A stretch of DNA of 64,000 nucleotides from a virus, in IMG/VR virus record IMGVR_UViG_3300023179_000033, positions 1 to 64,000 of that record. One strand, written 5' to 3'. The notes beneath the pieces are model-generated. The model searched no databases, was not told the origin of the DNA, and worked only from the letters and a program-made list of their open reading frames with translations. A program made the position numbers and the translations under genes. Every line of letters starts with the position of its first letter. Positions within the stretch are counted from its first letter, which is position 1. Below, one piece after another: positions 3,032-64,000 of the stretch.

Positions 3032-3083
3032 AATATATATTACACAATATATATTTGGCTTTTTTGTATTAGTAAATAGAGAT

Positions 3084-3171
3084 TGGAACGAGTAGGATTC
3101 GAACCTACGGATGATATTAAACCATCGGAAGTTTAGTAAACTTCTGCTTTAGACCACTCAGCCATCGTTCC
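3084..3171 (-). tRNA. tRNA-Ser-like, anticodon ACU, long variable arm, no encoded CCA
   Basis: GGAACGA/UCGUUCC acceptor stem, UGGCUGAGUGGUCUAAAGC D arm, GAAGU-UUACUAA-ACUUC anticodon arm, GAUGGU/AUCAUC variable stem, GUAGG-UUCGAAU-CCUAC T arm. Confidence 0.92.
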
Positions 3172-3172
3172 A

Positions 3173-15908: not shown

Positions 15909-16424
15909 GTGACTGTTTCGGAAAGAGATATTGATTTTTTTGCAAAGAAATTAGGTTTATCACCAGAAAAGACTTTCCTGTTGTTGCAAGATCCAGATTG
16001 TCTTCCAGAAATTTTAAATAAAGTAGCAGAAGACAATATAGATGGAATTGTAGATATTAGCTTTCCAGTTTTCGCCGAACTAACTATTATAAAATATAGC
16101 AAAGATTTAAAATATCCATTCGAAGAAAAAGAGTATGTTTCGCAAGCAGTTGGTTCTAAATTCTATGATCTAATAGAAACTCCATTACAAAATAAATATT
16201 TTTTTACCTTACAACATGATGAAGATACAGCTAAATCTGTTCTAGTATTTCTTGGATTTTTTTATAAAAGTTTAGAAAAACTCAGAAGATCATATCCATC
16301 AGAAAATGTTTATTATAATATAGCAAAAAATGGTTTTGAAAATTCAGAAAAAGAAGAAATATCTTATCATCTTAAAGATTGGATTAAAGTATTAAGAATT
16401 ATACATAATGAAGTTTGGTATTAA
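15909..16424 (+). CDS. hypothetical protein
   Basis: 171-aa ORF; CTGTAA 8 nt upstream. Confidence 0.65.
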   Translation: MTVSERDIDFFAKKLGLSPEKTFLLLQDPDCLPEILNKVAEDNIDGIVDISFPVFAELTIIKYSKDLKYPFEEKEYVSQAVGSKFYDLIETPLQNKYFFTLQHDEDTAKSVLVFLGFFYKSLEKLRRSYPSENVYYNIAKNGFENSEKEEISYHLKDWIKVLRIIHNEVWY

Positions 16425-16457
16425 TACTATATTCTTAAATTATTTAACTTTTCTTTG

Positions 16458-16754
16458 ATATCCAAAAGGGCTTTACCTCCAGATTTTATATATCTGAAGT
16501 TAAGTATTATCAATCCAACTTTTCTTTTGACTCCAAATTTATCACGATCTCAGCGATAAACGGGCCATCGCACTTATTGGTCAGAGGTAGCTTCTACCAC
16601 TACATTCTGCGATGCCTATAGCTACATTCCCTTCAAAAGCCATATTATGTACAAACGAAGGTTTTAATAGTTGTCAGCCCTTTAGACATTGCTATCTCAA
16701 GGATTGATAGTTGATTTTTTGACATCAACAAACTGCTCTAATTGGAAGCTATGT
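16458..16754 (-). ncRNA. putative structured non-coding RNA of unknown family
   Basis: GC-enriched intergenic block with no long ORF; closing helix of about 14 bp and several internal hairpins with G-U pairs on the minus strand; dedicated promoter. Confidence 0.7.
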
Positions 16755-16760
16755 TAATTT

Positions 16761-16789
16761 ATATTAGAATACATTTGCTTTTTTGTCAA
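16761..16789 (-). promoter_or_regulatory. sigma70-type promoter for the putative ncRNA
   Basis: TTGACA (16789-16784)-17-TAATAT (16766-16761). Confidence 0.7.
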
Positions 16790-16809
16790 TTTTTTTTATA
16801 ATATATAAA

Positions 16810-17019
16810 ATGGAAATAATTAAAAATAAAGCCAGATGGTTATTGTATACTGAAAAATGCATAAAGCATTATAACATAGATAATGATAATATTTATGATG
16901 AACCTAGCGAATATCCTTGCATTGTAATACCACAATTAATTTCGGACATAAATGGCGCAAGAGTTAAATTTAATTTTGTTTATAAAAAAGATTGCCAAAA
17001 ATTATTAAAACATTTATAA
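16810..17019 (+). CDS. hypothetical protein
   Basis: MEIIKNKARW...EPSEYPC; ATG in frame with ORF 16783..17019. Confidence 0.6.
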   Translation: MEIIKNKARWLLYTEKCIKHYNIDNDNIYDEPSEYPCIVIPQLISDINGARVKFNFVYKKDCQKLLKHL

Positions 17020-17049
17020 TAGTGTAACTATTATTAGTTCTTTCTCATT

Positions 17050-17471
17050 GGGCGCGTACTGGTTTCGATTTTAGGAATCGGAATTAAAATGCAGGTAGAG
17101 GTTTAGGTGGGTCTCTTTAAAAAGCCTTAAAAGTATTAACTGCTAAAACAGCTAAATACAAAGGTCATATCTCTGCTAGAGTTTCTCTAGTCGAGGAGAC
17201 CGCTTCTGTAGCTTAAGTTCTACAGCGTGATTACCATGACACATCTACTGGATAATTGCGTAATTAGATGTATTTTTATAAAATCCTTTTCATTTAATTT
17301 TTTATAAAAATTATTAAGGGTAAATTTGACCAAGGTTGAATTTATTATTAAATGAATAGCTAAAAACCAATTGTTTATTCGACTCTTTAGCGAATCAACG
17401 GAATAAACTAAACTTGTAGTATTTTAATTTAAATTCACTAAAACACGAAGGTTCAACTCCTTCCGCGTCCA
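17050..17471 (+). ncRNA. ssrA: tmRNA
   Basis: 5' GGGCGCGUACUGGUUUCGA; 3' GAAG-GUUCAACUC-CUUC CGCGUCCA; acceptor stem with G3-U wobble; tag ORF 17142..17216. Confidence 0.93.
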
Positions 17472-17524
17472 AAGAAAATGATCTTACAAAAAAGAAACGA
17501 TAAATTTTATAAATCAAATTAAAA

Positions 17525-18377: not shown

Positions 18378-18779
18378 TTATCTTATTTCTTTTCTTCCCT
18401 TACCTTTATTTAAATTTCTATGAGAATCAGTTAGTGAGTGGCAATTTGGACATAAAACTTCTAAATTGTTTATATTATTATTTTTAAAATCTCCATCTTT
18501 ATGATGAATTTCTAATGTGCTTTTGCCTGTTGTTGAATTTTTTTTATTCCAACCGCAGATTTCGCATGAGTAGTTTTTTTTGTTTATTAAATAATTTCTA
18601 ATAAAAGGTCTAATTTGCCCATTTGTTGCATACCCTCTATCGTTTCCATTTAACCAGTTTTGTACTTTAACATTGTTTTGATATTTAAACTGGCATGTAT
18701 TATTACAATAATATTTTATAGGTTTATCACATTCTTTGTTACAATTTTTGCATTTTCTTCTTGGCTTTCTAATATTCAT
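18378..18779 (-). CDS. HNH endonuclease
   Basis: CKNC..YCNNTC, CEICG, LEIHHKDG...NN..NLEVLCPNCH; ATG 18779 lies 8 nt after GTGTAA. Confidence 0.88.
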   Translation of the reverse strand: MNIRKPRRKCKNCNKECDKPIKYYCNNTCQFKYQNNVKVQNWLNGNDRGYATNGQIRPFIRNYLINKKNYSCEICGWNKKNSTTGKSTLEIHHKDGDFKNNNINNLEVLCPNCHSLTDSHRNLNKGKGRKEIR

Positions 18780-18872
18780 ATAAAATATTACACTCAAAAA
18801 TAGACCATTTAATAAATAATATTAGGTCTAATATAATAATTTTATATATATGATTTAGTGTAAATCTAAAAT

Positions 18873-43233: not shown

Positions 43234-45684
43234 ATGATATATTCACTACAAGTAGAAAGACATGTATTAAGCGGGCTGTTAAAACATCAAGATTTGTTTG
43301 CTGATATTGATGTATTTTTAACCGAGAACGATTTTTATAATGACGTTCATTCGTCAATATATACTGTATTTAAAAATATTAAACATAAAGGCGAAAATGT
43401 AGATAAGATTCTATTAGCTGAAAAGATCAAGAATCTAGGTATATCATTTAAAGATGAAATTAATATTTTTGACTATATTGATAATTTAAGTTTTTCACAG
43501 ATCACAGAAGAAGCTACTTTAAATGCTTGTAAAGAATTAATCAAATTAAGAATCCGTAGAGAAATATCTCAAACAGCAGATAAATTAAAAGAATATGTTA
43601 ATAAAAATTCAGAAGATTCAATTGACGATATCATTGGCAAAATAGATCAGATATATAATAAGAAGATTTCAGCATATTCAGAAAATGATATGCCAGTTAA
43701 TATTTTTTCTGAAGTAGAAGACCTTATTGAAGAAATTGGTAATTCTCCAAAAGAAGATACAGGATTGATTACGCCATATTCTGAATTTAATAGAATGTAT
43801 GGTGGTTTAAAAAATAGTAATATTTATGCAATTGCTAGTAGACCGGGGCAAGGTAAAGCTTTAGAAGAAAATACTATTATTTTAACACCAAATGGATTTT
43901 TAAAAATAAAAGATATAAAAGTTGGAGATTATGTATTTTCTATAGATGGCAAACCTACAAAAGTACTAGGAGTAAGAAAATGGGAAAATAGACAAATTTA
44001 TAAAGTATCTACAGATGATAATCAATATATTTTAGCAGATGAAAATCATGAATGGACAGTTCAACAAAGAAGTGATTATAAATGGAAAACTTTAACAACG
44101 AAATATCTTTTTGAAAATAAGTTTAATAAAAAGCCCAAAATTCCTAATTATAAACCTATTCAATTAACTCAACAAAGATTGTTAATTGATCCATATATAT
44201 TAGGAGCTTGGCTAGGTGACGGCAATAGTAACTCAAGTGTATTAACATCAAATGATGCATTTATAATTAATAAATGGAAAATTTTTGGAAAAAAAATTGG
44301 TTTGAAATGCAAAAAATATTCAAGATATGGATATAGATTATGCTCTAATAATAAAAAGAATATATTTACATCATATATAAAATATTTAAATATATTCAAT
44401 AATAAACATATACCTCAAATATATTTAATGGGATCTATAAAACAAAGAAGAGCTTTACTCCAAGGCTTAATTGATACGGATGGATACGTAGCACCAGATG
44501 GTCAAGTTGAATTTTGTAATACAAATAAAAAACTTGCGGAAGATGTTTTATTCTTAATACATTCTTTGGGTATTAAAGCGTCTATGTATGAATCTGATTC
44601 CTTTTTATATAATAAATTTTGTGGTAAAAAATATAGAATAAGATTTTATTATCAATATGCTGCTAAATTACCAAGAAAACGAAAAAATTGTATTAATAGT
44701 AAAAAATATAATCATAGATATTTATCTATAGAAAAATATGGCGTGGGAAATACTGTATGTTTACAAGTAGATCATCCATCTCATTTATTTTTAGCTGGTA
44801 AAGCTTTAATAACGACTCACAATAGTACATGGTTAAATGATATCTGTTTTAAAACTTCTATCAATCCTAAGAATAAAACCAAAACTTTAATTTTAGATAC
44901 GGAAATGCAAACTGTAGATATCCAATTAAGAATGGTTGCATCGCTAACTGATGTACCAGTATGGTATTTGGAAACAGGAAATTGGCGTAAAAACGAAGAG
45001 ATGACCAAAAAAGTTCGTGCGGCTTGGGCAAAAGTAAAAACATATGAATATTTTCATTATCATGTAGGAAATAAAAATATTGATCAAGTTTGCTCTATCA
45101 TTCGTAGATGGTATCTCTCAAAGGTTGGTCGTGGAAATCAAGCTATGATTGCTTATGACTATATCAAACTAACTGGAGAAAAAGTTGGTCAAAATTGGGC
45201 AGAACATCAAGCTATTGGAGAAAAGATTGATAAACTAAAAAGAATATCAGAAGAAATACATTGTCCAATTATTACTGCAATGCAATTAAATAGAACAGGC
45301 GAAAATTTTAATAGAAATTCTAATAATGTAGTTGATGATAGTTCTGTAATTTCACTCTCCGATAGACTTCAATGGTTTGCGTCATTCGTAGCCATCTTTA
45401 GAAGGAAAACTCTTGATGAAGTTACGCTTGATGGACAAGCATTTGGAACGCACAAATTAATTCCAACAAAAACAAGATTCCAAGGTAAAGATGCGGCTGG
45501 ACACCAAGATCTAGTTAGAAGATTAGATTCTGCGGGAAAAGAAGTATGGGCGCAAAACTATTTAAATTATCAAGTTACAAATTTTAATATTGAAGAGCGT
45601 GGTTCACTCAGAGATGTTGCAGAAAGACAAAGAGAGCAATATGAACTCACCGATCAAAATAGAAATGATGGAGAATTGCTATGA
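43234..45684 (+). CDS. dnaB: replicative DNA helicase with intein
   Basis: ASRPGQGK/ST Walker A split by the intein, DTEM, YDYIK, AMQLNR, KTR. Confidence 0.93.
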   Translation: MIYSLQVERHVLSGLLKHQDLFADIDVFLTENDFYNDVHSSIYTVFKNIKHKGENVDKILLAEKIKNLGISFKDEINIFDYIDNLSFSQITEEATLNACKELIKLRIRREISQTADKLKEYVNKNSEDSIDDIIGKIDQIYNKKISAYSENDMPVNIFSEVEDLIEEIGNSPKEDTGLITPYSEFNRMYGGLKNSNIYAIASRPGQGKALEENTIILTPNGFLKIKDIKVGDYVFSIDGKPTKVLGVRKWENRQIYKVSTDDNQYILADENHEWTVQQRSDYKWKTLTTKYLFENKFNKKPKIPNYKPIQLTQQRLLIDPYILGAWLGDGNSNSSVLTSNDAFIINKWKIFGKKIGLKCKKYSRYGYRLCSNNKKNIFTSYIKYLNIFNNKHIPQIYLMGSIKQRRALLQGLIDTDGYVAPDGQVEFCNTNKKLAEDVLFLIHSLGIKASMYESDSFLYNKFCGKKYRIRFYYQYAAKLPRKRKNCINSKKYNHRYLSIEKYGVGNTVCLQVDHPSHLFLAGKALITTHNSTWLNDICFKTSINPKNKTKTLILDTEMQTVDIQLRMVASLTDVPVWYLETGNWRKNEEMTKKVRAAWAKVKTYEYFHYHVGNKNIDQVCSIIRRWYLSKVGRGNQAMIAYDYIKLTGEKVGQNWAEHQAIGEKIDKLKRISEEIHCPIITAMQLNRTGENFNRNSNNVVDDSSVISLSDRLQWFASFVAIFRRKTLDEVTLDGQAFGTHKLIPTKTRFQGKDAAGHQDLVRRLDSAGKEVWAQNYLNYQVTNFNIEERGSLRDVAERQREQYELTDQNRNDGELL
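43858..44823 (+). mobile_element. class-3-type intein with LAGLIDADG endonuclease (322 aa)
   Basis: starts Ala (ALEENT), ends THN/S; HEW, TVCLQV and TTHN give the W-C-T triplet; LGAWLGDG and LQGLIDTDG. Confidence 0.9.
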
Positions 45685-47360
45685 ATGTAGAATTAATCTC
45701 AATTACAAAACCAGAAATTAAAGGAATTAAAAATGCAGAAGATCTTGTAGCATTTTGCGCTAGAGTTAGCAATCCATCTAATCAGATGAATACAGAGACT
45801 GCGCCAAAACTTTTAAAGTTTTTAATAAAACATAAGCATTGGAGTCCATTTGAACTAGTAGATATGTGCGTTGAAATTAAGACTAGTCGTGGTATTGCTG
45901 CGCAGATTCTTAGGCATAGATCATTTAGTTTTCAAGAATTTTGTATATCTGGCGATTCATTGATAACATGTATTATTCCTTCTAATAAATTACCTAATTA
46001 TATTCCTATTGAAAAATTATTTAAAAGACAAAAATGGAAAAATTATAAAAATATATTAGTTAGAGTTTATGATGAAAATAGAAAAGAATTTACGACATCA
46101 AAAATAAAAGAAGTTTTTTATACTGGTAAAAAACCTGTATATAAAATTACTTTATCAGATGGTAAAGAAATAAAATGCACAAAAGAACATAAATTTTATA
46201 CAGATTCTGGATTTAGGAGTTTAGAAGATATAATCGGTTTAGATACTAAACATCATGCTATGACAAAACAAGGATATATTGCTGTTAATGGTATTCCTTG
46301 TTATCAAAATTACGAATGGATGCGTCAATCAAAACAAGAAGCCCTAATTAATAAATTAGGTTTAAAATATATATCACAGAAAGCAAATTGTTCTTATCAT
46401 ACTATAAGAAAATGGCTAACTAAACATAAATTAAATTTTACTAAAAAAGAAGTGGCAATATGTTTTCCTATTTGGAATAAAGATAAATTTGGATATAAAA
46501 CTAATTTAATTGTTTCTGAAAAACATAAAGAAGCTATAAGAAAAGCTAGAAGTAAAGAAAAATGTAATTTTTGGAAAGGTGGATGTGATAGATCAGAACG
46601 ATTAAAAATTGCAGATTGGTGTCAAAAAATAAGAAAACAAAAATTACAAGAATTTAATTATAAATGTAATATTTGTGAATCAAACTCAAAACTAGAGCTT
46701 GACCATATAATACCGGTATATAAAGACAAAACAAAAGCATATAATTATGATAATATTCAAGTTTTATGCTCTAATTGTCATGATAAAAAACATAATATTA
46801 ATGGCGATCCAAAAGAATACAGGCTTCTTAGCGGGGGAAATACTTTATCAATTAAATATGTTTTAATTGAAAAGATAGAATATTTAGGAAAAGAAGACAC
46901 GTATGACATGGAGGTATATCATAATAGCCATAATTATATAGCTAATAAAATTTTAGCACATAACTCTCAAAGATATAGTATTGCAAATGAGTTTGAAGAT
47001 ATTGAACTTCGTTTGCAGGGAGATAAAAACAGACAGGTTGGCGAAAAGTTAATGCCAATAGGTACAGATGCTTACGATAAAGTAAATGAATTACTAGTAG
47101 AATCATTATCTTTGTCACAGCATTGTTATGAAACGATGATAGAGAATGGTGTTGCAAAAGAAGTCGCCAGAATGATATTACCATTAACAACACAAACAAC
47201 TATGTATATGAAAGGTTCATTAAGAAGCTGGATTCATTATATCGAATTAAGAACCGAACAAAATACTCAAAAAGAACATAGAGAAATCGCGGAAAGATGT
47301 AAAAAAATATTTATTAAGGAATTTCCTACAATAAGTGAGGCTTTAGAATGGAACAAGTAA
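45681..47360 (+). CDS. thyX: flavin-dependent thymidylate synthase with intein
   Basis: ARVS, HWSPFE, RHRSFSFQEF/SQRY, EVARMILP, LRSWIHY..LR, QKEHR. Confidence 0.95.
   Translation: MNVELISITKPEIKGIKNAEDLVAFCARVSNPSNQMNTETAPKLLKFLIKHKHWSPFELVDMCVEIKTSRGIAAQILRHRSFSFQEFCISGDSLITCIIPSNKLPNYIPIEKLFKRQKWKNYKNILVRVYDENRKEFTTSKIKEVFYTGKKPVYKITLSDGKEIKCTKEHKFYTDSGFRSLEDIIGLDTKHHAMTKQGYIAVNGIPCYQNYEWMRQSKQEALINKLGLKYISQKANCSYHTIRKWLTKHKLNFTKKEVAICFPIWNKDKFGYKTNLIVSEKHKEAIRKARSKEKCNFWKGGCDRSERLKIADWCQKIRKQKLQEFNYKCNICESNSKLELDHIIPVYKDKTKAYNYDNIQVLCSNCHDKKHNINGDPKEYRLLSGGNTLSIKYVLIEKIEYLGKEDTYDMEVYHNSHNYIANKILAHNSQRYSIANEFEDIELRLQGDKNRQVGEKLMPIGTDAYDKVNELLVESLSLSQHCYETMIENGVAKEVARMILPLTTQTTMYMKGSLRSWIHYIELRTEQNTQKEHREIAERCKKIFIKEFPTISEALEWNK
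45942..46964 (+). mobile_element. intein with HNH endonuclease (341 aa)
   Basis: CISGDS ... CTKEHKF ... TYDMEV..HNYIAN.ILAHN/S; internal CNIC..LELDHIIP..NIQVLCSNCH. Confidence 0.9.
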
Positions 47361-62422: not shown

Positions 62423-64000
62423 TTATGTTGGTCGGTAAGTATTTAATTTTATTGTTGGTTGTATTTTTTGGGCAATCGCTTCTCTTTTTGGTAATACTTT
62501 TGGTCTATTCGCAAAACTTATTTGAGAGGTCGCTCCGTTTTCATTTAAATTTATACTAAATGAAGTTAATCCTTTATCAGGGCTAATATAATCTACAAGA
62601 TCTCCAAAATTTAATCCAATAATTGAAAGAGATAAATTTTTTCTTGGCGAAGTAACAGAATTTACAATTTTTTTACTAAGATCTGCGTGATATTGGGCAG
62701 GAGTAACAGTTTTGAAATTTTTTGTGGCGCCATCTGGCACAAACATATTTATTATAGTAGATCCATCCACAGGATCAAGATCATTTGTTATATCAGATTC
62801 TGCAACATGTAATGATAATGTATTATCATCAATGTCATTTATATTTCCAAAAACTAATTTTTGTCCCGGTACAGTAAATTTTACAGAGCTAGAGACTGTT
62901 TCATAACCATAATATGGCGTTTCCGCAGGTGCAATAAGATTAATAGATCTTTCTCCATTGTAAATTAACGATACAGTTCTAGCGGTTGGACTGTTTAATC
63001 CAACAAATGGAGTATTCTGATCTGGACATTTTCCACAAACTTGCTGTAATAAATCTGCTTCACAAACAGTAATACATTCACTACTTTTTTCACTATTTTC
63101 TTGTCCCTTTACTACTTCTTTTGTATTTTTCATTGTAGTTGTAGTAACTTGCATAATCTTGTTAAGAACACCTTTGGGAGGTAGAAATACAAATACAACT
63201 TTTCTTTGACCATCTTGTACATTTGAATCTTTTAGATTATTTATTAAAGTTATAACCTTATTTGCTTGTTCGGCTAACTTAGTATCTCCAACGCATTCTG
63301 CGGTATTTTTTGCTCCATCAAGTCTTACGTAACCAAGTCCATCTAAGTCTTGAATTGCTTCTTTATATTTTAAAAAAGGATCATCTTTGTTATCATCTAA
63401 CATTGCTTTATCATATTCATCTTGCGTTGTTCCATACGCTGTACTTCTTGAAAATAAATAAAATGTAGGAATATTCCATTCTATCCCGCTATTTTCTGGT
63501 ATAGGTCCTTCTATAACTTTGGCAAATGGAAGATCATATTTATTCTTATTTGTATAAATTTCTGAAGTTGGATTAATAGTAGTTTTTCTTTCTGCAAATA
63601 AACTTGTACTACAAGAACGACTATCTATGGAAGGCGCATTAGCACCTTCATAATATTTTCCAATCATATCTGCGATAGCCGCTTCCCAGTCTTGATAAAG
63701 TTTTAATTTATCTGGATCATATAATGCTACAAAAACTTGCGCTCCATTATACTTAGCAATAAAATCTGTAATCGCTGGATTATTATAACCATAATCATAT
63801 ATTTTTGTCCAAAAATTATCATTTACTTGGCCTTTTTCAATCGTTTCAAAAGAACTAAGCGCAGTATAACCAAGTGGCTCATAATCATTATTCATGATAG
63901 CGTAAACATTTCTTGCAGCAGGACTATATTTTCCAAGAATTGCTCTTGTAACATCATAGTTTGAAACTTTAAGTTTCTCAGGTTTAATACAATTAAACGT
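62423..64000 (-). CDS. large structural protein, partial (continues beyond the window)
   Basis: frame stays open from 63895 to 64000 (TFNCIKPEKLKVSNYDVTRAILGKYSPAARNVYAI). Confidence 0.7.
   Translation of the reverse strand, partial: TFNCIKPEKLKVSNYDVTRAILGKYSPAARNVYAIMNNDYEPLGYTALSSFETIEKGQVNDNFWTKIYDYGYNNPAITDFIAKYNGAQVFVALYDPDKLKLYQDWEAAIADMIGKYYEGANAPSIDSRSCSTSLFAERKTTINPTSEIYTNKNKYDLPFAKVIEGPIPENSGIEWNIPTFYLFSRSTAYGTTQDEYDKAMLDDNKDDPFLKYKEAIQDLDGLGYVRLDGAKNTAECVGDTKLAEQANKVITLINNLKDSNVQDGQRKVVFVFLPPKGVLNKIMQVTTTTMKNTKEVVKGQENSEKSSECITVCEADLLQQVCGKCPDQNTPFVGLNSPTARTVSLIYNGERSINLIAPAETPYYGYETVSSSVKFTVPGQKLVFGNINDIDDNTLSLHVAESDITNDLDPVDGSTIINMFVPDGATKNFKTVTPAQYHADLSKKIVNSVTSPRKNLSLSIIGLNFGDLVDYISPDKGLTSFSINLNENGATSQISFANRPKVLPKREAIAQKIQPTIKLNTYRPT

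Follow-up and report, generated by a model that had tools for sequence, protein, structure and literature searches.

Large, highly structured RNAs without a known job are rare, and to our knowledge each one reported so far has led to new biology. Nearest among described systems to the RNA presented here are ROOL and GOLLD, which are encoded by phages, lie near tRNA-type genes and carry several pseudoknots defined by covariation, and which have no known protein partner or function according to the portion of the report available to us (PMC12286853). Here we analyze an intergenic block in the genome of an uncultured lake phage, within a window of 64,000 nucleotides (nt) that forms the first 64 kb of the 118-kb IMG/VR virus record IMGVR_UViG_3300023179_000033 (estimated to be 77% complete). 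Comparative sequence analysis indicates that the block holds the gene of a real new family of phage noncoding RNA, one that has a promoter to itself and for which a fold with two pseudoknots is well supported. This RNA resembles ROOL and GOLLD in the respects just listed, has no sequence relationship to either and is much smaller. Unlike them (about 600 to 800 nt or more), it measures about 310 nt, has no Rfam match to either, and contains two internal tracts that are kept identical to each other. With this length and two pseudoknots it is a compact case, small enough for chemical probing and cryo-electron microscopy.

Several other systems share individual features with this RNA. The c4 RNAs of phages P1 and P7 and the CI RNA of phage P4 are immunity or antisense RNAs with duplicated recognition sequences, whose complementary targets lie in the same phage. 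These are likewise small phage RNAs, and in them short tracts set a type-specific recognition that differs between close phages; in contrast, we found no complement of the tracts in the 118-kb record, and the RNA described here is much larger and more structured. The template RNAs of defense reverse transcriptases and the bridge RNAs of IS110 elements (200 to 300 nt) are also structured RNAs in which short repeated or paired guide segments matter, whereas the present RNA has its own promoter and no fixed protein-coding neighbor. Neither a reverse transcriptase (PF00078) nor an IS110 recombinase (PF01548) had a match in the 118-kb record. A type III antitoxin of the ToxI kind is a poor fit as well, in that there are just two tracts of 11 to 20 nt, set 69 to 75 nt apart with covarying helices between them, and no constant downstream gene follows, although no search was aimed at ToxN-type genes. 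Finally, Fremin et al. (2023) reported 8,495 structured RNA candidates that, like ours, came from IMG/VR and from covariation in phage intergenic regions; at the lengths given in the accessible part of that article (29 to 151 nt, mean 67) these are too short to contain the whole 310-nt RNA, and single hairpins of it may be among them (PMC10690425).

We searched the models of Rfam 15, which include RNase P, 6S, signal recognition particle (SRP) RNA, group I and II introns, ROOL, GOLLD, HEARO, CRISPR repeats and riboswitches, either at gathering score or at an E value of 10 or less. At gathering score, the whole window matched only transfer-messenger RNA (tmRNA) and tRNA, and eight homologous loci matched only tmRNA. 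At E ≤ 10, the only match within the block in a search of positions 16300 to 17100 was Termite-leu (E 7.1), and in loci of the homologue types B, C and D introduced below nothing overlapped the RNA. A BLASTN search of 50,697 deposited phage records with the block likewise gave no match, and we found no description of the RNA in the literature. An earlier note on this DNA had proposed a new phage noncoding RNA that is not RNase P, SRP, 6S or a group I or II intron; with no Rfam family that fits and with strong covariation, that proposal stands.

Seen alone, the block is set apart by its composition. The GC fraction is 0.385 at 16500-16699 compared to 0.22 to 0.30 in the flanks, in agreement with the enrichment remarked on in the earlier note, and GC skew is reversed within it. 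Six-frame translation met stop codons of all three kinds in each frame of both strands, so that no single stop reassignment opens a frame. The block cannot encode protein, and we ruled out a protein-coding reading on these grounds. The fold of the single sequence was only modestly better than those of shuffled sequences (z of -2.24 on the minus strand and -1.96 on the plus strand), and therefore the weight of the evidence is comparative. The strand was fixed by invariant G-U pairs (for example, columns 120-131 and 212-248, in 52 of 52 sequences), which would be A-C on the plus strand. This places the RNA on the minus strand, the orientation that had been favored before on the same kind of pair.

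We collected homologues by three routes. A search with the neighboring 171-amino-acid (aa) protein returned 36 phage loci, in 27 of which the block lies just downstream of the gene for this protein (24 at 87 to 97% identity and 3 at 67 to 71%), while 4 more carry part of the block, inverted, at the locus edge. Across the same 24 loci the coding flanks are 78 to 91% identical in DNA sequence, as against 87 to 97% for the block, which is the best-conserved stretch there. For the second route, we scanned IMG/VR for an invariant 17-letter motif and then applied nhmmer; this yielded 87 full-length copies, 52 of them distinct (types A to C); a covariance model of the RNA scored all 52 at 212 to 378 bits, and the remaining motif matches were due to chance. 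Five loci with the 171-aa gene that seemingly lacked the RNA led us to a further type, D, with copies that lie upstream of nrdA, and a second pattern scan raised this type to 18 distinct sequences. A genome-wide search with the model missed three type D copies found by direct search, and its "no match" is thus weak. The collection comprises 70 distinct homologues from IMG/VR phage contigs, divided among types A (38, including the window), B (9), C (5) and D (18). Of the 36 records with the 171-aa gene, 35 contain the RNA, and the last could not be checked, its contig beginning inside nrdA.

As far as we scanned, the family's range is one lineage of low-GC phages. A scan of 185,579 prokaryotic genomes with the pattern of the tract m1 (see below) gave at least 120 stretches, only one of them related among the matches listed, and a scan with the pattern of the second tract, m2, gave no new family members. 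We considered, and set aside, host evidence from a contig of an Actinomycetota metagenome-assembled genome (L227; 56% GC), the last ~110 letters of which are identical to the type A RNA; chimeric assembly within this public genome bin is the probable cause.

Identity of the RNA to the window copy is 86 to 93% in type A, 62 to 64% in type C, 57 to 61% in type B and 36 to 43% in type D. The nrdA, nrdB, orf110 and orf171 genes of type D genomes, however, are 83 to 91% identical to those of the window, no lower than the same genes of type A genomes. Given that the RNA types share only 36 to 64% identity while their flanking genes share 83 to 91%, the RNA exists as discrete variants on a common genome backbone, and within each type conservation is strong. 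The RNA is a core gene in a widespread lake-phage lineage, and within a type it is more conserved than the adjacent ribonucleotide reductase genes, yet it is split into discrete types. Conservation within types combined with discreteness between them usually marks a determinant of specificity or conflict, and here it suggests that phage variants differ in a specificity that the RNA determines.

To assess the fold, we compared a hand-derived structure with controls in which the 3' partners were slid by 1 to 3 columns. In a MAFFT alignment that was not fitted to the structure, 76 pairs, including those of two pseudoknots, were paired in 92.8% of cells (33 to 48% when slid) and 35 pairs had changed on both sides (9 to 16 when slid), values that none of 500 shuffles reached. 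An alignment refitted with the model, which leans toward the structure, gave 83 pairs, 94.2% paired (33 to 47% when slid), with 42 double-change pairs compared to 11 to 18 in the slid controls, and RNAalifold, unaided, found 21 double-change pairs among 51. Type D was aligned on its own, since a model-fitted alignment of 69 sequences misplaced the 3' part of several type D sequences; counted alone it has the same architecture, with 56 pairs that are 94.5% paired (33 to 43% when slid) and 19 double-change pairs (1 to 4 when slid). Changes on both sides of a pair were thus above the controls, and these comparisons indicate that the transcribed part folds into nine helices plus two pseudoknots, which compensatory changes have maintained in four types. 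The earlier note had named covariation among homologues as a check on its RNA, and across the 70 sequences it is strong.

From 5' to 3', the predicted structure runs through P1, P2, a weak P3, P4 (with its loop in pseudoknot 1), P5, a junction that supplies the 5' strand of pseudoknot 2, P6 and P7, and then through tract m1, P8, P9, the 3' strand of pseudoknot 1 and tract m2 (Table 1). Within P4, columns 82/99 are U-A in 25 sequences and C-G in 27, and the outer AUAG/CUAU is replaced by AUGG/CCAU in type C and by GGG/CCC in type D. Pseudoknot 1 is 96% paired in type D, with 3 double-change pairs, and P5 in that type is 98% paired, with 4. Pseudoknot 2 is found as GUAGCU/AGCUAC, GUGGCU/AGCCAC and GUAGGU/ACCUAC. 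The three parts of P6 are 97.3%, 98.1% and 98.6% paired and contain 3, 1 and 3 double-change pairs, respectively. The place of P7 is taken in type D by a short GCC-GAAA-GGC hairpin.

All of the complementary segments listed in the earlier note, and its promoter, stand at the positions given there, and most of its helices survived comparison. CAUCGCA/UGCGAUG is 97% paired with 3 double-change pairs, UUUAUCGC/GUGAUAAA 94.5% with 6, CUUCAGAU/AUCUGGAG 90% with 6, and CCUUC/GAAGG 91% with 4. The hairpin GUUGAU/AUCAAC is kept in type A, but different hairpins stand there in types B to D. From the long-range helix that had been drawn as closing the domain, the core AAGGGCU/AGCCCUU is retained (99.5% paired, 4 double-change pairs), whereas the remainder and the topology are not: the helix is shorter, and it is a pseudoknot, because the loop of a local hairpin serves as its 5' strand. 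Two short pairings were replaced. The CUAC of GGUAG/CUACC pairs instead with GUAGCU at 16620-16625 in pseudoknot 2, and the AUAG of CUAUC/GAUAG pairs with the downstream CUAU to form the outer stem of P4.

The promoter, which is of the sigma-70 type and close to consensus, points to an independent gene. In the window alone, TTGACA-17-TAATAT is not above chance for AT-rich DNA (13 promoter-like sites compared to 12.2 expected), although across the family it is conserved. TTGACA-17-TAnnAT precedes 51 of the 52 type A to C copies, and the 52nd is truncated by the end of its contig. Under a strict pattern, the promoter was found in 15 of the 18 type D copies; two of the three misses carry TTGACA-17-TACTAT, and the third carries TTGATT-17-TATGAT. 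Conservation starts 5 to 10 letters past the -10 hexamer, at ACAUAG. Conserved hexamers at a fixed spacing, directly before the start of conservation, are what an independent sigma-70 RNA gene is predicted to show. We place the probable 5' end near 16754, about 7 nt past the -10 hexamer, as suggested previously, and the approximate 3' end near 16445, where conservation ceases just after the second tract. No terminator-like hairpin follows the RNA gene in any type.

Mapping to metatranscriptomes had been suggested as a further check, and public data gave a partial answer. Fifteen public runs hold a small share of the window's words, and 10 of these are recorded as RNA. Four RNA libraries, from four studies with lake or freshwater labels, contain contigs with pieces that fall within 16368-16736 and are 85 to 98% alike; three short contigs lie wholly inside the RNA gene, one of them 221 nt long with 4 differing letters. 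The gene is therefore represented in RNA libraries, but contigs do not prove transcription. They cover the RNA and the tmRNA and leave out orf171 (before 16368) and the 69-aa open reading frame (ORF); an uncovered stretch proves nothing, and depths cannot rank genes.

The most conserved parts of the RNA are two tracts, m1 and m2, that are unpaired in every model. The core of m1 equals the core of m2 in 70 of 70 sequences, across eight core versions. In types A to C both tracts read YAAAGAAAAGU, with one additional A in m1; the Y positions of the two tracts are both C in 41 sequences and both U in 11, none of the 52 being mixed, and the switch between C and U occurs within type A and again within type B. 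In type D, where the tract is less purine-rich, both tracts read UUGGGAAGU or one of five variants of it, and in 18 of 18 sequences the variant is the same in both. At least seven independent core changes have occurred, each mirrored in both tracts, and no change is confined to a single tract. When m2 was shuffled among sequences within a type, m1 and m2 differed at 70.5 ± 4.1 positions, compared to 32 observed, all of them in the trailing letters; none of 2,000 shuffles gave a count as low. Tracts that change in lockstep offer a concrete experimental handle.

We looked for sequences that could account for the tracts by pairing with them. Close relatives that differ in their tracts show no compensating change elsewhere in the RNA. 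In type D, 7 letters of the P1 loop are complementary to the tract of that type, and we rejected this pairing because a change on one side is not accompanied by a change on the other. We also rejected a pyrimidine run upstream of nrdA that could pair with the type A tract, because it is unchanged in type D. A palindromic hexamer overlapping m2 (GAUAUC, GAGCUC), considered as a dimerization signal, was rejected because it is absent in 5 of 18 type D sequences. Elsewhere in the window, an exact 13-letter copy of m2 in the same sense (minus strand) lies at 63197-63209, inside a 490-aa minus-strand ORF, and it is probably a chance occurrence in Lys-rich coding sequence.

Table 1. Positions in the window of the RNA gene, its predicted structural elements and tracts, its promoter, and the genes on either side
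Feature	Position	Strand	Evidence or remark
RNA gene, ~310 nt	16445-16754	-	Alignments; covariance model hit at 16440-16757, 363.5 bits
-35 hexamer TTGACA	16784-16789	-	Identical in 51/52 type A to C and at least 15/18 type D
-10 hexamer TAATAT (TAnnAT in the family)	16761-16766	-	17 nt after -35; spacer sequence varies, length fixed at 17
P1 hairpin (GCUU/GAGC)	16735-16749	-	100% paired; 3/4 pairs changed on both sides
P2 hairpin (GUUGAU/AUCAAC)	16710-16729	-	86% paired; other hairpins here in types B, C and D
P4 hairpin (outer AUAG/CUAU, inner YGUC/GACR, 9-nt loop)	16667-16695	-	100% and 95.7% paired
Pseudoknot 1, 5' strand AAGGGCU, in P4 loop	16676-16682	-	99.5% paired; double changes in 4/7 pairs
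Pseudoknot 1, 3' strand AGCCCUU	16466-16472	-	Same helix evidence as 5' strand
P5 hairpin (CCUUC/GAAGG, apical GU.CAU/AUGGC)	16630-16661	-	90.6% and 98.4% paired; 4/5 outer pairs double-changed
Pseudoknot 2, 5' strand GUAGCU, P5-P6 junction	16620-16625	-	98.1% paired; 2/6 pairs double-changed
Pseudoknot 2, 3' strand AGCUAC, P6 apical loop	16587-16592	-	100% paired in type D
P6 three-part stem (CAUCGCA/UGCGAUG, AUG/CAU, GGUC/GACC), 12-nt loop	16566-16614	-	Covariation
P7 hairpin (UUUAUCGC/GUGAUAAA)	16538-16560	-	94.5% paired; 6/8 pairs double-changed
Tract m1, unpaired (GGAGUCAAAAGAAAAGUU)	16517-16534	-	Invariant in 52/52 type A to C save one C/U position
P8 hairpin (GUUGG/UUAAC)	16499-16519	-	85.8% paired; one-sided changes only (G-U to G-C or A-U); weakest helix
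P9 hairpin (UUCAGAU/AUCUGGA)	16478-16498	-	89.8% paired; 6/7 pairs double-changed; register slips in some
Tract m2, unpaired, 3' end (GGAUAUCAAAGAAAAGUU)	16446-16463	-	69-75 nt after m1 in 52/52 type A to C
171-aa ORF (orf171), no assigned function	15909-16424	+	One side of the RNA block
69-aa ORF	16810-17019	+	Other side of the RNA block, then tmRNA gene
tmRNA gene	17050-17472	+	Rfam model match, 87.3 bits, full model

The surroundings of the gene differ between types. In types C and D, the unit of promoter and RNA has the same orientation as nrdA and lies 120 to 140 nt upstream of it. Types A and B have the unit inverted: it lies downstream of orf171, with which it converges, and the small ORF and the tmRNA gene diverge from it. 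The short region directly before nrdA is kept both with and without the RNA, and in a few genomes a methyltransferase-like ORF or two uncharacterized ORFs are inserted right after the RNA. Since the promoter and the fold are kept while the neighbors, place and orientation change, the RNA is best read, on this comparative evidence, as a free-standing, trans-acting gene. The methyltransferase-like ORF resembles S-adenosylmethionine-dependent methyltransferases and spermidine synthases, is 216 to 219 aa long, and starts fewer than 10 letters from the last conserved letters of the RNA; it adjoins the RNA in three genomes that span two RNA types (L082:150-809, L068:745-1395 and the matching region of L012). 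The two minus-strand ORFs (311 and 153 aa) lie between orf171 and the RNA gene of a single type A genome (L014:4521-5907).

With a little more confidence than doubt, we favor a reading in which the block is the gene of a free-standing, trans-acting noncoding RNA of about 310 nt on the minus strand, for which we propose that a scaffold presenting the tracts is the mechanism. The host RNA polymerase would transcribe the RNA without phage factors, and if host polymerase suffices, the RNA would probably be made early in infection. It would then act in trans as a folded particle. Because the tract cores are identical in all sequences despite their eight versions, the fold could serve as a scaffold that presents the unpaired, purine-rich m1 and m2 to one common partner, which would be contacted twice; we offer this step tentatively and think it rather more apt to be wrong than right. 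Such a partner could be two-fold, for example, a dimeric host or phage protein, or it could be a nucleic acid with a matching sequence. Alternatively, within the same mechanism, m1 and m2 might contact each other.

Several observations weigh against this reading. Because the 70 sequences are kin, there have been fewer independent events than the counts of paired cells would suggest. No complement of the tracts was found within the RNA, the window or the 118-kb record, which apart from the gene itself shows no enrichment; a single 11-letter complement in that record is antisense inside a gene. The duplex energy of the tract with the phage tmRNA and tRNA-Ser was -14.0 against a background of -12.0 ± 2.5, and 55 of 300 random windows did as well. 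In four type D records the type D core also has copies outside the RNA gene, but these are no complementary targets: the ones examined are same-sense and lie in unrelated places, and two homologous ones fall within a coding frame. Gene conversion, and not function, could in principle be what keeps two tracts of 9 to 11 nt identical. With no terminator behind it, the RNA in types C and D could be cotranscribed with nrdA. Lastly, the RNA-library contigs show the presence of the sequence and not its strand, ends or level, and DNA carry-over is possible.

A more specific way in which the tracts could meet is that m1 and m2 pair like with like, in a parallel purine-rich homoduplex of A-A, G-G, U-U and C-C pairs, so that the contact is preserved as identity and not as complementarity; as direct repeats within a single chain, they are able to run alongside each other in this way. 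We regard this as unlikely, although it would explain the identical cores in their eight versions, the absent complement, the richness in purines and the tolerated extra A in m1. If true, the homoduplex would represent a conserved tertiary element of a kind new for RNA, with a form of covariation that standard tools do not look for. Selection for identity inside an RNA escapes covariation methods that are built for complementarity.

It is also improbable, in our judgment, that the RNA is a ribozyme or self-processing RNA in which the pseudoknotted 5' two-thirds are catalytic and the tracts are two cleavage or ligation sites around a piece of 69 to 75 nt. In size and in having two pseudoknots it is typical of catalytic RNAs, the identical tracts do flank a folded segment of that length, and conservation stops exactly at the second tract with no terminator beyond. 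However, no Rfam ribozyme family matched at E ≤ 10, and there is no internal guide complementary to the tracts and none that changes with them; contigs from RNA libraries, for their part, cannot show cleavage. We see a similarly small chance that the RNA assembles with itself into a homo-oligomer, as an "ornate" RNA of the ROOL and GOLLD kind whose pseudoknots or tracts form contacts between copies. Phage origin, several pseudoknots, a position beside the tmRNA gene in types A and B and the lack of a protein partner in view are all consistent with this, and one contact that covariation had suggested for ROOL proved to be between chains, as the accessible part of that report describes (PMC12286853). 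Yet the RNA has half to a third of the length of ROOL or GOLLD and matches neither model, and contacts between copies would not require m1 and m2 to be identical within one molecule.

We doubt strongly that the RNA acts in cis on the ribonucleotide reductase operon, as a leader or riboswitch that senses a nucleotide and controls nrdAB. It does lie directly upstream of nrdA, in the same orientation, in five of five type C loci examined and in the type D loci examined, and no terminator-like site follows it. A leader would be expected at a fixed position and on the same strand in all members, which is what we found in types C and D but not in types A and B. In the latter (47 of the 70 sequences), the RNA is inverted and downstream of orf171, with no following gene on its strand, and these inverted copies are still 87 to 97% identical and have their own promoter. 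In addition, the region just before nrdA is retained whether or not the RNA is there, and no Rfam riboswitch matched.

We give as little credence to a template or primer RNA for a polymerase, in which a copy of one tract anneals to the other during strand transfer or repeated copying, or in which a purine-rich RNA-DNA hybrid primes replication. Strand transfer would select for tracts whose sequence drifts freely while the two copies match, as it does here through eight versions in 70 of 70 sequences, and a strong promoter without a terminator would suit such a role. Against this, the 118-kb record (77% complete) has no PF00078 match, so that the adjacent reverse transcriptase gene expected of a retron or DRT template RNA was not found there; the spacing of the tracts is not fixed (69 to 75 nt), the place and orientation of the gene differ between types, and the type D tract is less rich in purines. 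An element that acts at the DNA level (an origin, for example, or clustered protein binding sites, with the tracts as repeated sites) would account for direct repeats in a gene-free, compositionally distinct block, but it is very improbable given that 42 base pairs change on both sides and yet stay paired, that many G-U pairs are sensible on one strand only, that the promoter is conserved in position, and that pieces of the block occur in RNA libraries.

The phage that carries the gene uses the standard genetic code, and the GC content of the window is about 28%. Its gene content includes a DnaE-type polymerase, a DnaB-type helicase and a UvsX-like recombinase, and its closest cultured relatives are remote, with a DNA polymerase less than 33% identical to any. 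Upstream of the RNA block lie nrdA, nrdB and a 110-aa ORF (orf110). The small ORFs neighboring the RNA had no match among Pfam or PHROG families and are genes separate from it.

The tmRNA gene encodes the tag peptide AKTAKYKGHISARVSLVEETASVA and is directly preceded by a promoter-like TTGCCA-17-TATAAT at 16992-17020. In the tmRNA of relatives, as seen in RNA-library contigs, about 135 letters of the variable middle (17272-17405) are swapped for about 101 others. A free-standing HNH endonuclease gene at 18378-18797 (minus strand), 0.9 kb beyond the tmRNA gene, runs opposite to the surrounding plus-strand genes. The window also encodes a 90-nt tRNA-Ser at 3083-3172 (minus strand), to which ARAGORN assigned the anticodon ACU; an unmodified A at the first anticodon position is unusual. 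Finally, an HNH endonuclease domain occupies the middle (aa ~280 to 380) of the thymidylate synthase ORF at 45681-47360 (plus strand), and the middle of the DnaB-like helicase ORF at 43234-45684 (plus strand) also matches terminase and primase families. These central segments may be inteins or inserted homing endonucleases.

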